From Desulfosudaceae bacterium (lineage in GTDB: Bacteria > Desulfobacterota > Desulfobacteria > Desulfobacterales > Desulfosudaceae), in NCBI GenBank assembly GCA_963674745.2, contig CAXXDV010000001.1:2240001-2304000 (forward strand): a stretch of DNA of 64,000 nt. The letters run 5' to 3'. The notes below the pieces were generated by a model, which was given only the letters and a program-made list of their open reading frames with translations, did no database searches and was not told the DNA's origin. Of the stretch, positions 26,714 to 43,306 are shown piece after piece. Positions within the stretch are counted from its first letter, which is position 1, and each line of letters begins with the position of its first letter. The translations under genes and the position numbers were made by a program.

Positions 26714-27226
26714 ATGGATAAGAAAAAATGTTTGATATGCTGTAGTGAAATAGATGTTCAGGCTAAAAAATGTCCTTTTTGTAAACACTGGCAAAATAAA
26801 ATTAGCCTGGTGATTTGGCATCCATTTTTTACAGTAGCGATATTGCTTGTTCTTTACCTTCTATTCCAACAATTCTTCATTGATACACTTGGCCCTGGTG
26901 AGGATTTTGCTCCGGTAAGAAGTGAGATTGTTTTAAAGGATTGTACTATGGAGTTCGGTGAATCCAAATGCGGGCAAACAGTGGTCATTTTAGGAATGAT
27001 TGAAAATAATAGCGATCTAAATTGGGAAAAACCAAATTTTGAAATAATTTTCTTTGACAAGGATAAAAATATAATTGATACCGAACAGGAGGAAAATTAC
27101 AGTTTTGTCCTACCATCAAAAGAAAAAGTCCCTTTTAAGGTATCGATTAGAAGAGAATTTCCGCAGGAACTTTATGACTCGTTTGAGATACGAATTGTAA
27201 CGGCCAAAGAAGAAGGCCACTATTAA
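26714..27226 (+). CDS. Cassette 2: zinc-ribbon + TM + FxLYD-like protein
   Basis: CxxC..CxxC, one TM segment, GMIENNS..IIFFDKD. Confidence 0.75.
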   Translation: MDKKKCLICCSEIDVQAKKCPFCKHWQNKISLVIWHPFFTVAILLVLYLLFQQFFIDTLGPGEDFAPVRSEIVLKDCTMEFGESKCGQTVVILGMIENNSDLNWEKPNFEIIFFDKDKNIIDTEQEENYSFVLPSKEKVPFKVSIRREFPQELYDSFEIRIVTAKEEGHY

Positions 27227-29307: not shown

Positions 29308-29820
29308 ATGGATAAGAAAAAATGTTTGATATGCTGTAGTGAAATAGATGTTCAGGCTAAAAAATGTCCTTTTTGTAAACACTGGCAAAATAAAATTAGC
29401 CTGGTGATTTGGCATCCATTTTTTACAGTAGCGATATTGCTTGTTCTTTACCTTCTATTCCAACAATTCTTCATTGATACACTTGGCCCTGGTGAGGATT
29501 TTGCTCCGGTAAGAAGTGAGATTGTTTTAAAGGATTGTACTATGGAGTTCGGTGAATCCAAATGCGGGCAAACAGTGGTCATTTTAGGAATGATTGAAAA
29601 TAATAGCGATCTAAATTGGGAAAAACCAAATTTTGAAATAATTTTCTTTGACAAGGATAAAAATATAATTGATACCGAACAGGAGGAAAATTACAGTTTT
29701 GTCCTACCATCAAAAGAAAAAGTCCCTTTTAAGGTATCGATTAGAAGAGAATTTCCGCAGGAACTTTATGACTCGTTTGAGATACGAATTGTAACGGCCA
29801 AAGAAGAAGGCCACTATTAA
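29308..29820 (+). CDS. Cassette 6: second copy of cassette 2
   Basis: Protein identical to 26714-27226. Confidence 0.85.
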   Translation: MDKKKCLICCSEIDVQAKKCPFCKHWQNKISLVIWHPFFTVAILLVLYLLFQQFFIDTLGPGEDFAPVRSEIVLKDCTMEFGESKCGQTVVILGMIENNSDLNWEKPNFEIIFFDKDKNIIDTEQEENYSFVLPSKEKVPFKVSIRREFPQELYDSFEIRIVTAKEEGHY

Positions 29821-30449: not shown

Positions 30450-30505
30450 CCATATATAAGTCAGTCGGAGGAAGCCCTGGCGCCCTTTGGCTGCCGCCGT
30501 TATGC
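30378..30505 (+). repeat. attC7 (family A)
   Basis: GCCCAAC...GTTATGC. Confidence 0.9.
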
Positions 30506-30519
30506 GTAACGAGTATCAT

Positions 30520-31005
30520 ATGAATGATATAACATCAGATTCAACCCTTTTAACATTATATGGATTTGGAATCATATCGATCACCTTAGATATTTGGTTT
30601 TTTATCCCTTTTTGGGGACAGTGTGCGATAATTTGGCCATTAGCCATATTTGCAATAATTATTTATTATGGACAATTGCGAAAAGAAGAGGTCATCCCTC
30701 CAGCAGATTTGAAATTTTTTCTATTCCCTTTCTTTAACCCAATAGTATTAATTGCTTTATGGCTTGCGCTATTTTTTCCTAGAATGAACGATCCAATTAT
30801 AACCAATTTCGGAAAGCTCCACTTTTTGTTTGTATTTATATTTTTTTCTTTCGGTATAGATACTATGATTTTAAATTCTGATAACTATCAAGGGGTGTCT
30901 GATTTGGGCCGAATGTGTTGGATTTGTTCTTTTACAATTGCTTTATTGTTATCAATTACAATTAGAGTATTTCAATATAAAAGGAATAAACAAAACTGCG
31001 CATAA
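30520..31005 (+). CDS. Cassette 8: polytopic membrane hypothetical protein
   Basis: Several hydrophobic segments; stop in R''. Confidence 0.75.
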   Translation: MNDITSDSTLLTLYGFGIISITLDIWFFIPFWGQCAIIWPLAIFAIIIYYGQLRKEEVIPPADLKFFLFPFFNPIVLIALWLALFFPRMNDPIITNFGKLHFLFVFIFFSFGIDTMILNSDNYQGVSDLGRMCWICSFTIALLLSITIRVFQYKRNKQNCA

Positions 31006-31123
31006 CCAAGAAGCTCAAGTGGACATCCAGGGCATTCGGGTTTTGAAAAATCGGGGGAATTGAACAGCCAAAATTATTAACAAAGCTGGTGGAAGCCCTG
31101 GCTGCCATTGGCTTCAGACGTTA
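31000..31123 (+). repeat. attC8 (family A variant), R' interrupted by the intron
   Basis: GCATAAC...GGCTTCAGACGTTA then intron. Confidence 0.88.
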
Positions 31124-33126
31124 GCGCGCCAAGCGAAGCTTGGTGCGTCTTGCGGGGTGCAAGTCCCCGTCGGGTGAGGCCTAACCAGCCACCCGTATCG
31201 AGTGTTGCGTGATTGGGAAGGATAGGCATACCGTCGAACGACCCACACGAAGCGTACACAGAGAATCGTACAGGCCGTAGGGGAGTCCGTGCTCCCTGAA
31301 GTGCTGGTATCGCTTCGAAAGGAAGCTTGGTTCCGGTCGCCGAGAGTTGTAACGTACTCGAAGGCAACACAAAAGCATCCGTTATGGTGAGGGTGTGGAG
31401 GGCCGGCGGAGTTATCAAGCCGTGGCATGTACGAAGAGACGCACACAAGAACTTGGGAGGCCCATCCGACTCCTGCGCGGCAATATGGTCCGGCTGACAC
31501 TTAGACACGAAAGGGAAACCCGGATACAGATATCAGCCGAGCCTAAGTAGCCGCAGGGCAGGAAGGGGAACCAAAGCGAAAGTGGAGGAACCCTGGTTGG
31601 GTGGGAGTCGTATCGAGCATAGTACTCTGAGCGTGGGAAAGCCACGTACATGGGGAAGGACTTGACGGAAGTACGTAGCCCGCAAAGGAAACACATGCCG
31701 GACACAGCAGGATCGGATAAACGTGTGCAAACCTCACTGCGGGGGATAGCCAAAACGGCTCGGTTCAACACGCAGCATCGCTTTCGGGATCTTTATGGTC
31801 TGCTTAATACGGAACTGCTTCATCTGGCGTGGAAGGGCTTGAATAAAAGTTCGGCCATAGCCGATGACGACATCACCGTCAAGACATACAGTCAGGACCT
31901 GATCGCCAACCTGGAAGGGCTGGCGGAACAGCTCCGGCAGAAGAGATACCGGGCGAGATTGGTCAAAAGACGTTTTATTCCAAAGCGTAACGGTAAGAAA
32001 CGGCCCCTGGGCATCCCCGCCTTGGAGGACAAACTTGTCCAGAAGGCGGTGGCCATGATCCTGACGGAGATATACGAACCGGATTTTCTGGATTGTTCGT
32101 ACGGATACCGACCGGATAAAGGGGCCAAGGACGCGATCGGCGACCTGACGTTTCAGTTTCAGTTCGGCGTATTCGGCTATGTTGTGGAAGCGGATATCAA
32201 AAGTTATTTTGATACCATTAACCATGATAAGCTGATGGCCATACTGGAGAAACGGATCAATGATCGGGCGTTCTTGCGGTTGATCAGAAAATGGCTGAAA
32301 GCGGGCATCCTGCATCCGGACGGACAGGTCGAGCATCCGGTTACCGGGACGCCCCAGGGAGGACTCGTATCTCCCGTCCTGTCGAACATTTATCTGCATG
32401 AGGTGCTGGATAAATGGTTCCAGGAGGTAGTCAAACCGAGGCTGGCAGGCCGTGCCATCATGTGCAGATATGCGGATGACTGGGTATGCGCCTTTCAATA
32501 TCGGGAAGATGCGGACCGGTTCTATGATGTTCTTTCGAAACGCCTCGGCTGCTATGGTCTTGAGGTGGAGCCGAGCAAGACAAAGGTCATCCGGTTCAGC
32601 CGATTCCAACCCGGCCGGGAGCGTGACAGGACGTTCACGTTTCTGGGGTTCGAATTTTACTGGTCAAAAGACCGCAAAGGTGTTGCCCGGGCACAGCGTC
32701 GCACGGCTCCGGCCAAGCAACGTGAAGCCTTGGCGCGTATGAGAGATTGGTTGAAGAAGTCCCGGCATCTGCCGAAAAGACAAATCTTTGATGGGCTGAA
32801 ACGTAAGCTGACCGGCCATTACAATTATTTTTATGTACGGGGGAATGCCCGTGCGGTATGGTCGTTTTACAGAGATGTGATCAGCTCGGCATTTAAATGG
32901 CTGAATCGCAGAAGCCAGCGTAAAAGCTATAATTGGGAACGATTTAAGCAGGTCTTAGAATACGTAAAAATACCGAAACCGAAGCTGACGGAAAAGAAAC
33001 GTTTTCGCACGTGCGCGTTGAGCTAAGCCGACACGGAAGCGAGTATAACCGAGGAACCGGATGCGGGAAAACCGCACGTCCGGGACTGTGTGGGGGGTGC
33101 CGGGTAACCGGCATTCCTACCACGAC
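31124..33126 (+). mobile_element. Group II intron inserted in attC8 R' on the top strand
   Basis: 5' GCGCG; domain V/VI-like CCGGATGCGGGAAAACCGCACGTCCGG...CCTACCACGAC. Removal restores GTTA^TACGC, complementary to the cassette end GCGTATAAC (33589-33597). Confidence 0.93.
31650..33026 (+). CDS. ltrA: Group II intron reverse transcriptase/maturase, no endonuclease domain
   Basis: RPLGIP, SYGYRP, ADIKSYFD, GTPQGG, RYADD, FLGF, domain X; ends without HNH; true start uncertain. Confidence 0.95.
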   Translation: MGKDLTEVRSPQRKHMPDTAGSDKRVQTSLRGIAKTARFNTQHRFRDLYGLLNTELLHLAWKGLNKSSAIADDDITVKTYSQDLIANLEGLAEQLRQKRYRARLVKRRFIPKRNGKKRPLGIPALEDKLVQKAVAMILTEIYEPDFLDCSYGYRPDKGAKDAIGDLTFQFQFGVFGYVVEADIKSYFDTINHDKLMAILEKRINDRAFLRLIRKWLKAGILHPDGQVEHPVTGTPQGGLVSPVLSNIYLHEVLDKWFQEVVKPRLAGRAIMCRYADDWVCAFQYREDADRFYDVLSKRLGCYGLEVEPSKTKVIRFSRFQPGRERDRTFTFLGFEFYWSKDRKGVARAQRRTAPAKQREALARMRDWLKKSRHLPKRQIFDGLKRKLTGHYNYFYVRGNARAVWSFYRDVISSAFKWLNRRSQRKSYNWERFKQVLEYVKIPKPKLTEKKRFRTCALS

Positions 33127-33141
33127 TACGCAAAGGATATT

Positions 33142-33588
33142 ATGGACGAGAAAGAATTTTGGAATATCTTGGGAATGCTCAACTGGGATAAAACGGGTGA
33201 TGATGAAGCAGTCGTTGAGCCAGTTGTAAGCTATCTATCCAACCAATCGGACGAAGATATATTCCAATTTGAAGAGTTGCTCGCTCAAAAGCTATATGCG
33301 CTTGATACAAAAGCACATGCTAAAGAAATTGGTGAGGACGCATACATAAATGATGATCAATATTTTTCAGTTGATTGTTTTTTATATGCACGGTGTGTAG
33401 TCGTCGCAAACGGTAAGGAATTGTTCGAAGATGCTCTAAACAATCCATCAGAATTTCCTAAAGATATGGAGTTCGAAGCTATATTGTACGTTGCTCAAGA
33501 TGCTTATGAACGAAAAAATGGGAAAAAATGGAATTATGTATCCCCCACCAGTTATGAAACATTTAAAAATGTTGGTGGTTGGGAATAA
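33142..33588 (+). CDS. Cassette 9: DUF4240-like protein
   Basis: MDEKEFWNIL, FSVDCFLYARC..VANGK, FEAILYVA. Confidence 0.75.
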   Translation: MDEKEFWNILGMLNWDKTGDDEAVVEPVVSYLSNQSDEDIFQFEELLAQKLYALDTKAHAKEIGEDAYINDDQYFSVDCFLYARCVVVANGKELFEDALNNPSEFPKDMEFEAILYVAQDAYERKNGKKWNYVSPTSYETFKNVGGWE

Positions 33589-42405: not shown

Positions 42406-43306
42406 ACCTTTCTAAAATCAACATGGATTGTATTTATCAGCTCATTTAAGACAGTCAGGCTGTCCTGCTCCGTTATATCGCTCAGATGCGTATAACGTGC
42501 TGTTGTGGAGGGACTGGCATGGCCAAGCAGGGCCTGGATGTGACGGAGGCTTAAGCCGCGTTCAAGCAGGTGGGTGGCAAAACTGTGACGCAGGGAGTGA
42601 ATGGATACTTTTTTTTAATGCCGCATTCGGCGACGACCACTTTCATGGCTCTCTGACAGCCGCCTTTATCCATAAAGTTGGTGGCCGCCCGGATGGTCTC
42701 TAAAGACCCCTTGCAATTGGGAAATAACAAATTAGGATGACGATGCTTACGCCAAAGCTCCCGCAGGCCCGTCAAAGTCAGGTCCGGCAATGGCAGCATT
42801 CGGTCCTTATGACCTTTACCCCGGCGGATATGGACCTTTTTGCGCTCAGCATCAATGTCCCCGATCTGAAGGGACAACGTCTCTTCCAGACGCAATCCCA
42901 TGGAATAGGTTGTCAGCAGAAATACCCGGTAACGCAATTTCTTGGTTTTGCCGATGATCCGTTCAACCTCGGAAACGGTAAGAATGTCCGGTATGGTTTT
43001 GACTTTCGGCGGTTTGACGATCTTGATCCATTCCCAGTCCTTTCCGAGCACATACCGCCAGAAGAACTGCAAGCCGTTACGGTCAACCCTGACCGTGCTC
43101 CAGGAATGGCTATCCACCAGCTGAGAGAAATAACCTTCCAATTGTTCCGGACGCAAATGGTCGGGACAACAATCAAAATGGTTACGAATGCGGCGGACTG
43201 AACGGGCATAGAGATCAATGGTCCTCGGACTCATACCCTGAAGCTTGAGCAACTCCAGGTGCCTCTCATAAAGCCGGTTGAAACGTTTTACTTCCGAATC
43301 GTTCAT
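42402..43306 (-). CDS. Tyrosine recombinase with SAM-like N-terminus; full length requires a -1 frameshift at 42608-42614
   Basis: YSMGLR and GKGHKDR in frame 0; [21 protein letters not shown] in the -1 frame; stop overlaps the transposase start (ATGA). Confidence 0.88.

Follow-up and report, generated by a model that had tools for sequence, protein, structure and literature searches.

A 64,000-nucleotide (nt) stretch of a Desulfosudaceae bacterium genome (contig CAXXDV010000001.1, positions 2,240,001 to 2,304,000; hereafter the window, with positions counted from its first base) carries a group II intron inside an attC site of an integron cassette array. We conclude that this intron probably represents a large environmental clade that homes into the attC top strand and that combines an endonuclease-less, class-E-like reverse transcriptase (RT) with a ribozyme of the IIE/IIF type. 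It constitutes a second, independent attC-targeting lineage, working on the strand opposite to that entered by the IIC-attC introns. This reading is carried by an identical second copy in another attC site of the same genome, by the mapped insertion points of relatives, and by matched changes between the guide loop of the intron and its exon. An earlier note, made from the letters of the window alone, had proposed that the intron pairs with attC through two exon-binding sites (EBS1 and EBS2). The first of these pairings is borne out below and the second is not.

Insertion point and target sites of the clade

The intron splits the R′ core of the attC site at GTTA^TAC and runs in the same direction as the cassettes, both flanking open reading frames (ORFs) lying on the + strand. 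This co-orientation, the 5′ exon GCTTCAG-ACGTTA (31111-31123) and the start of the 3′ exon, TACGC (33127-33131), had been described in the earlier note and can be read directly. A search of the same genome returned a second copy with 100% identity over exactly bases 1-2003, located on another contig (C3:2339031-2341033, minus strand) and also inside an attC site. The two copies share the 5′ exon (...GGCTTCAGACGTTA) and differ in the 3′ exon, which begins TCGAG in the second copy, and in the cassette. In unoccupied attC sites of the same family the sequence ...GACGTTA continues with T, A or G, and relatives of the intron start with G(C/U)GCGCC and end with CCUACC plus five bases. Since the second copy, the ends of the relatives and the empty sites agree, the insertion point GTTA^TAC is secure. 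The window copy starts with GCGCG, the canonical GUGCG start being present in relatives L004 and L014; its 3′ end (...GAC) and the bulged A at 33119 are those of a group II intron. The GTGCG at 31143-31147 could also be taken for the 5′ end, but this start is rejected because it lies 19 nt downstream of the one shared by the second copy and every relative; the GTGCG at 31143 belongs to a 5′-proximal hairpin. For the 5′ arm of that hairpin, CUUGG at 31452-31456, where domain I ends, is a possible other partner. Covariation involves all three strands in L011, the local pairing alone is perfect in L009, and the two pairings may be alternative conformations.

Species-representative genomes and metagenome contigs were scanned, which gave about 90 RT relatives with 43-93% identity, and profiles of the intron ends located 53 5′ and 79 3′ junctions. 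With the window added, and with two junctions that abut the end of another intron copy removed, 52 5′ exons were available. The homologues insert at the same spot: 37 of the 52 exons end in GTTR (CGTTA 29, CGTTG 4, TGTTA 2, AGTTA 1, GGTTA 1). Each base of C-G-T-T-A at positions -5 to -1 is found in 39-44 of the 52 exons, and no base exceeds 24/52 at positions -6 to -12. The 3′ exons (n=81) have a purine at +1 in 55, a purine at +2 in 60 and a pyrimidine at +3 in 53, GGC being the commonest start. Taken together, the two consensus sequences spell GTTA|RRY, the R′ box of attC, and the conservation at +2 and +3 exceeds what the intron's own pairings need, which is at most +1.

Structure at the target points the same way. 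We applied three strict structural detectors of attC hairpins, the third with a preset 2% threshold, which called 9/33, 11/36 and 12/35 of the GTTR junctions attC-like. The first two called 24/1500 and 19/1500 of random GTTR sites of this genome, so that attC-like hairpins are enriched 15-20-fold at the junctions. Junctions not ending in GTT gave 0/16 and 0/13 with the two detectors that scored them. A search for attC sites by self-similarity within the loci of the relatives recognized almost nothing. The open frames that flank GTTR junctions are predominantly co-oriented with the intron (17 vs 2 of 23 downstream, 15 vs 4 of 23 upstream), from which it follows that the clade inserts in sense orientation, like the window copy.

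A FastTree phylogeny of 124 RTs, which has local supports only, several long branches and no labelled references, sets a 91-row clade (support 99) apart from 33 more distant RTs. Targets of the GTTR type are spread through this clade (35/50 rows with a known exon), with retargeted members scattered among them, and a Pseudoalteromonas relative (L012, 53%) also falls inside it. The window lies in a 12-row subclade in which 10/10 known exons are GTTR. One relative, L003, occupies a 2606-nt contig binned as Bacillota, where an intron with 93% nucleotide identity follows ...GGCGGCGTTA in an unrelated flank, which points to either recent horizontal spread or a binning error. In two loci copies stand in tandem, with one 3′ end abutting the next 5′ end (L106:2911-2912 and L108:2670-2671), and at L004:3454-3463 a 9-nt 5′ remnant (GCGCGCCAA), the first nine bases of the intron, follows a 3′ end. 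An occupied site could be hit again, because the 5′ exon is unchanged by insertion and the next base is the G of the intron, and the tandem copies fit such re-insertion.

Exon recognition by EBS1 and a candidate EBS2

The guide TAACGT, proposed in the earlier note as EBS1 for the intron-binding site (IBS1) ACGTTA, lies where a group II intron is expected to carry it. In the Rfam structure its loop caps the first Id3 hairpin, and the stem shows 6-10 both-side changes per pair in a consensus fold of 20 relatives. In 42/51 relatives the loop pairs with its own exon (positions -6 to -1) over the last 5-6 bases, and 0/5000 exon permutations reach the mean pairing observed. Guide and exon have changed together in several members, as TAATGT/ACATTA, TAACGC/GCGTTG and AATGGC/GCCATT, and relatives that were retargeted have likewise changed both sides (CCUAAC/GTTAGG, AGGAGG/CCTCCT, GUGAUG/CATCAC, UGAAAA/TTTTCA). 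Together with the mapped exons, this covariation upholds the proposal of a base-pairing-guided, independent route of sense insertion into the attC top strand. Two relatives are inserted at shifted points within R′, L122:943 at GTTAGG^ with EBS1 CCUAAC and L158:1090 at AACGTT^ with EBS1 AACGUU; in both, the guide slid along the same R′ core instead of leaving it.

The second pairing of the earlier note joined CTGAAGT, as EBS2, to GCTTCAG, so that EBS1 and EBS2 together would read the 13-nt word GCTTCAG-ACGTTA. The letters and coordinates of this segment are correct, and there is a seven-base complementarity with one G-U, yet CUGAAGU is a conserved structural motif and not an exon-binding site. 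The fold of domain I, which puts EBS1 in the expected loop, places CUGAAGU directly after a hairpin (31281-31296), and the first base of the motif is the last base of that covarying stem, in which both sides are changed in nine sequences at one pair. Of about 50 relatives almost every one keeps the motif in the form YUGAAG, among them non-attC members with unrelated exons. It has no preference for its own exon, the mean pairing of this region being 2.9 with its own exon against 3.3 with others, and 4831/5000 permutations score as high. A match of this kind is also expected by chance at 0.34-0.38, as full pairing with some part of the 430-nt domain I was reached by random 7-mers in 34% of trials and by GCTTCAG in 38% of cases when domain I was shuffled. 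In favor of the two-guide model, both intron copies sit in attC sites of the GCTTCAG type, which account for 10/83 ACGTTA sites (hypergeometric p 0.013) or, when +1 is T, for 7/52 (p 0.016). This occupancy bias is equally well explained by a different EBS2 at 31323-31328, because the GGCUUC that it would pair with overlaps GCTTCAG. The full word, which the earlier note took to be unique to the interrupted site, is so within the window and occurs at 10 attC sites in the genome, of which 2 are occupied and 8 are empty. We consider it very improbable that the site is read in the way first proposed. A reading of CUGAAG and the preceding GUAGG as a tetraloop-receptor-like motif that would take up the loop of domain V was also tried and is unsupported, the motif being unchanged between members with a GAAAA loop and members with a UAGUU loop.

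The alternative, a pairing of GAAGCU (31323-31328) with GGCUUC, comprises 6 base pairs (bp) including one G-U. When 51 sequences were scanned for pairing with exon positions -20 to -6, the top alignment position was the window segment 31317-31331, with matches in 24/51; a first scan with 10 sequences gave no consistent column, and the signal emerged with 51. Matches in the same register are found in L124 (9 bp, at a non-attC site), L119 (8 bp), L129 (7 bp), L106 (6 bp) and L011 (6 bp). The loop scores a mean of 3.91 with its own exon against 3.36 with others; this mean is reached by 54/5000 permutations and by 0/200 shuffled exons, a rank test gives p 0.034, and a control loop has no own-exon preference. 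Whether GAAGCU is a real EBS2 is, on these sequence comparisons, evenly balanced.

Ribozyme class, reverse transcriptase and known systems

Several features of the RNA suggest an intron of the IIE/IIF kind. The α and α′ loops covary, as AACC/GGU in the window, L003 and L010 and as AGCC/GGC in other members, and α′ occupies a terminal loop of Id3. Domain V has 33 nt in 80/80 rows and a 5-nt terminal loop in 74/80, and CCUACC of domain VI is conserved in 80 rows. Class C RNA, by contrast, has a shortened domain V, and the intron further departs from that class by a 6-bp EBS1 pairing (at least 5 bp in 42/51 relatives) and a candidate EBS2. The catalytic triad position of domain V reads AGC in 46 of 80 clade members, with G facing A instead of the usual U, and AAC, with A facing G, in 30, the window among them; four could not be parsed. 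We therefore read the AAC triad as a purine-purine pair that appears to have been swapped, not lost, and the presence of two identical copies in the genome argues that this form works. The RT/maturase ORF is intact in both copies, and no DNA-binding or endonuclease (D/En) domain was detected in it. A tblastn search of plasmids with the RT returned nothing above 41% identity.

IIE and IIF introns are described as IIB-like, with α′ at the tip of the Id3 stem-loop and a 5-nt domain V loop, and IIC introns as having an incomplete EBS1 and no EBS2 (Nagy et al. 2013, PMC3753933). The same work found EBS1 to be essential and EBS2 dispensable for self-splicing of IIE/IIF ribozymes. Its examples Cl.be.I2, Pe.th.I2 and Ge.ur.I1 resemble the window intron in their small IIB-like RNA, terminal-loop α′ and 5-nt domain V loop. 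They differ in that they are described as using ordinary homing with a clear EBS2-IBS2 pairing, the accessible text makes no mention of attC, and the triad of the window subclade is AAC.

The IIC-attC introns, such as S.ma.I2 and Kl.pn.I3, are the established specialists on this target, and they enter its bottom strand and run antisense to the cassettes (PMC3001079, PMC4424553). In reviews, insertion into attC is ascribed to class C as its speciality, and other lineages are credited with ordinary homing (PMC4424553). Both kinds of intron lack the endonuclease, both insert at a GTT core, where the hairpin formed by the entered strand has its 3′ base, and both do so repeatedly at the same nucleotide. 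They are set apart by the strand (bottom and antisense against top and sense), by the RNA (class IIC against a IIE/IIF-like ribozyme with a 6-nt EBS1 and a candidate EBS2) and by the consequence for expression, as the window intron is spliceable in principle from cassette transcripts and would then, unlike IIC-attC introns, need no outward promoter for downstream cassettes.

The claim that the intron is unlike the known IIC-attC introns thus stands for its sense strand and its non-IIC nature. It had precedents, reported in PMC7923331 (Sonbol and Siam 2021). H.ha.F1 and H.ha.F2 are class E fragments in a cluster of attC sites lacking an integron integrase (CALIN) of Halorhodospira halochloris. 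Like the window intron they follow attC-like hairpins in cassette orientation, in an array without a neighbouring integrase, and have no D/En. Their RT can be aligned by eye with that of the window along its whole printed length and has the motifs VVKPR, RYADD-VCAFQ, FLGFE, GHYNYF and KWLNRR in common with it. These fragments are 5′-truncated and frameshifted, which makes the insertion point and EBS unreadable, whereas the present genome has two full-length copies; the precise target, how EBS1 pairs and how broad the clade is can now be seen. A CL1 (IIB1) intron, UHB.I2, also stands in sense next to the attC top strand and lacks D/En, but its RT is of another class, it lies immediately after the attC and not inside R′, and exons are poorly conserved among its relatives. 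The same paper cites an "unusual" IIC intron of Enterobacter cloacae with top-strand, sense insertion into attC, which was described as a class C element and an isolated oddity. In the full-text literature, subscription papers being outside its reach, PMC7923331 is the only relevant precedent that we found, and a partial one; no complete member, insertion point, pairing of EBS1 with R′ or clade breadth is described there, and a search of the same literature for Ps.tu.I1, a reference intron of class E, found nothing.

Proposed homing route, alternative readings and the host array

The proposed mechanism begins with an EBS1-IBS1 helix of 5-6 bp, in which UAACG(U) pairs with (A)CGUUA, a stretch that contains the near-universal GTT of the attC R′ box. 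A weaker, site-specific EBS2-IBS2 pairing, which has roughly equal chances of being real or not, would add to targeting, and entry would take place at GTTA^RRY. Because the RT has no endonuclease domain, insertion would call for transiently single-stranded DNA at a replication fork and for a replication primer. Endonuclease-minus introns are reported to take their primer from the leading or the lagging strand at the fork (PMC4424553). GC skew is +0.05 to +0.06 around the window copy on the + strand and -0.04 to -0.07 around the second copy, where the intron is on the minus strand, so the intron is carried by the G-rich strand in both cases. Skew is usually taken to mean that this strand is the template for lagging-strand synthesis, which would make that template the target strand. 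Owing to its sense orientation the intron could be carried in, and spliced from, cassette transcripts. Its place 3′ of the G|TT crossover makes it formally part of the downstream cassette, with which it would then travel while splicing restored the cassette leader. Retrohoming by this route, a contribution from EBS2, a part played by the attC hairpin and an effect on recombination are proposals made on this basis.

Other explanations must be weighed against an attC-homing IIE/IIF-type clade. The intron might target nothing more than the short word CGTTA followed by a purine or T, its link to attC being one of survivorship at harmless sites, with nothing integron-specific sensed. In keeping with this, only 5-6 exon bases are conserved across the clade, some relatives occupy CGTTA without a detectable hairpin, and one copy (L088:656) is found at a non-matching site. 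However, attC cores make up only 52/500 of the ACGTTA|T words in this genome and both copies (2/2) lie in them (p about 0.011), which hints that more than the word is sensed, be it the hairpin, single-strandedness or EBS2. The attC-like RRY at +2 and +3, beyond the reach of the intron's pairings, and the enrichment of hairpins over random GTTR sites also speak against the short word, and sense insertions in genes could splice out and so would not all have been purged. We regard this explanation as unlikely, although it has more weight than the two that follow. One of these holds that the intron is a class C element in an unusual orientation, recognizing a hairpin and a short IBS1 like the top-strand IIC intron of E. 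cloacae. The lack of a detected D/En domain, the insertion at the 3′ base of a DNA hairpin and the want of a strongly conserved IBS2 would suit it, as would the best PDB matches of the RT by a small margin, 5hhj (3.9e-42) and 7uim (4.1e-41) against 8.3e-40 for LtrA, the first two of which we take to be IIC RTs. Since the RT's PDB matches are no closer for IIC than for IIA, and the 33-nt domain V, its 5-nt loop, the terminal-loop α′ and the likeness by eye to the class E fragments all belong to IIE/IIF introns, we give this reading next to no credence. The earlier note's exclusion of class IIC is accordingly upheld by the RNA hallmarks, the sense strand and the full EBS1, and the RT leans, in its matches to solved structures, to no one type. 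The remaining alternative is a dead relic, a ribozyme disabled by its AAC triad and carried as passenger DNA. The two unusual oppositions in domain V and a below-threshold RF00029 score favor it. Against it stand two copies, 100% identical over 2003 nt in different cassettes and different arrays, an intact 458-amino-acid (aa) ORF, and an AAC triad that is shared by 30/80 clade members at many different sites and that looks like a purine-pair swap, not a random hit, given that G faces A in the AGC members. A relic is thus highly improbable.

The attC-homing reading has its own weak points, which are gathered here. No detector recognizes more than about one third of the GTTR junctions, and the window's own site escapes one of them, so that the attC identity of the remaining junctions rests on the R′ consensus and inspection by eye; the true fraction of attC sites is higher than called, because the detectors miss sites that are attC by eye. 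Covariation of the candidate EBS2, which extends over exon positions -17 to -6, is modest and scores of at least 6 are not enriched. EBS3 is not fixed, as a candidate column that paired in 10/11 cases (mostly wobble, 11 sequences) was unremarkable in 47. RF00029 aligns end to end at 33052-33126 with 33.9 bits, below its gathering score of 40, and the AAC triad brings two non-canonical pairs (A.A and A.G oppositions). Solved RTs of IIC, IIA and IIB types in the PDB match about equally (1e-42 to 1e-33), a pattern that would fit a separate class. The RT is probably of class E, the class to which the authors of PMC7923331 assign H.ha.F1/F2, by a likeness judged by eye. The assignment of the target strand draws on two copies only. 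Splicing in vivo is predicted from the intron's sequence; contigs of four runs contained neither a 31123-33127 joint nor any other spliced form; what they had were loose ends at 31123 and about 33121-33129, a pattern that empty attC sites and other intron copies would give. On balance we hold that the attC-homing reading, including an intron that is active or was so very recently, is probably correct.

A broader version, to which we would give an even chance, is that the class-E-derived clade is a dedicated commensal of cassette arrays and a convergent mirror image of the IIC-attC introns. It would have its EBS1 tuned to CGUUA, use the top strand, be spliceable, travel with the downstream cassette and re-enter the same site to form tandems, the window subclade running on an AAC triad. 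If this is true, any cassette junction is a potential homing site, since the CGUUA of R′ is shared by nearly every attC. That an unrelated lineage reaches the same few bases from the other strand suggests that the attC core is a repeatedly exploited landing pad. The two lineages offer a natural contrast for asking what group II introns sense in a folded site, whether sequence, hairpin or replication strand. Sense insertion means that cassette transcripts could be mended by splicing and that the intron could move as cassette cargo; it also alters the R′ box to GTTA|GCG..., which may affect excision. Introns of this kind are also relevant to the idea that cassettes are built with the help of introns, and a compact endonuclease-less intron with a programmable guide of 5-6 nt is of some interest as a targeting tool.

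Table 1. Features of the intron and its attC site in the window (positions in the 64,000-nt stretch)
Feature	Position	Strand	Remarks
Upstream cassette ORF	30487-31005	+	
5′ part of the interrupted attC	31000-31123	+	from sequence; member of the profile family; R″/R′ pair; arms form an imperfect hairpin
Candidate IBS2, GGCTTC	31110-31115	+	exon -14 to -9; overlaps GCTTCAG (31111-31117) of the earlier note
IBS1, ACGTTA	31118-31123	+	last six 5′ exon bases; GTTA belongs to the R′ core GTTRRRY
Group II intron, 2003 nt	31124-33126	+	starts GCGCG; 3′ end ...CCUACCACGAC
5′-proximal hairpin CCAAGC-GAA-GCUUGG	31129-31143	+	directly 3′ of GCGCG; compensatory change in L011 (CCGA/UCGG)
Domain I core	31160-31421	+	Rfam RF02005 (group-II-D1D4-6), 111.2 bits vs gathering score 49, E 1.2e-30
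α loop, CUAACCA	31181-31187	+	covaries with α′ loop
Hairpin GGGAG-UCCGUG-CUCCC	31281-31296	+	Id2 position; consensus fold of 20 relatives
CUGAAGU, EBS2 of the earlier note	31296-31302	+	invariant motif directly 3′ of hairpin
Candidate EBS2, GAAGCU	31323-31328	+	variable internal loop 5′ of inner Id helix
EBS1 hairpin	31344-31359	+	stem GAGU/ACUC, loop UGUAACGU (31348-31355), EBS1 UAACGU 31350-31355
α′	31382-31391	+	terminal loop of second Id3 hairpin
RT/maturase, 458 aa	31650-33026	+	TIGR04416, 342 bits (cut-off 300); RVT_1
Domain V, 33 nt	33054-33086	+	5-nt terminal loop GAAAA, 4-bp upper helix, AAC at triad position
Domain VI	33091-33126	+	bulged A 33119, seven bases from 3′ end; sequence and RF00029 alignment
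3′ exon	33127-33141	+	TAC completes R′ (GTTA|TAC); then AAAGGA ribosome-binding site of next cassette
Downstream cassette ORF	33142-33588	+	in-frame ATG within listed ORF 33061-33588; start 15 nt after intron

The interrupted site has the features of an integron attC, in which an imperfect palindrome with R″ RYYYAAC and R′ GTTRRRY comes after each cassette ORF of an array. It runs from GCATAAC to GTTA|TAC over 123 nt, its R″ (GCATAAC, 31000-31006) overlaps the TAA stop codon of the upstream cassette ORF, and its 5′ part ends with the GTTA of R′. A profile built from this attC matched 161 sites in the genome, in about eight arrays. The window holds 17 members of the family, the interrupted site being the fourth, where the earlier note had counted 28 sites. 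Three integron integrases score above the TIGR02249 cut-off, each adjoining an array (C3:2348261, C1:2117407 and C3:27977), and the array of the second intron copy is one of these three. The array of the window follows an acyl-CoA synthetase gene and has no integrase beside it, and is therefore a CALIN.

Some further observations concern the genome and the array. One very large array is located at C1:1.48-1.53 Mb, near the GC-skew minimum, and cassettes have about 36% G+C against about 50% for the genome. On the minus strand of the window, at 42465-43252, a tyrosine-recombinase-like ORF of 255 aa matches the N-terminal half of the integron integrase model with 85 bits; a C-terminal piece of 70 aa with a stop comes next, and the ORF is situated in an island rich in G+C (41-43 kb). 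This arrangement of recombinase ORF and C-terminal piece recurs four times in the genome (C1:1739981, C1:2102784, C1:2282749 and C3:2332314), in or beside attC arrays. Within the window's array, the same 170-aa protein (MDKKKCLICC...) is encoded in two cassettes, at 26714-27226 and 29308-29820, representing a cassette duplication.

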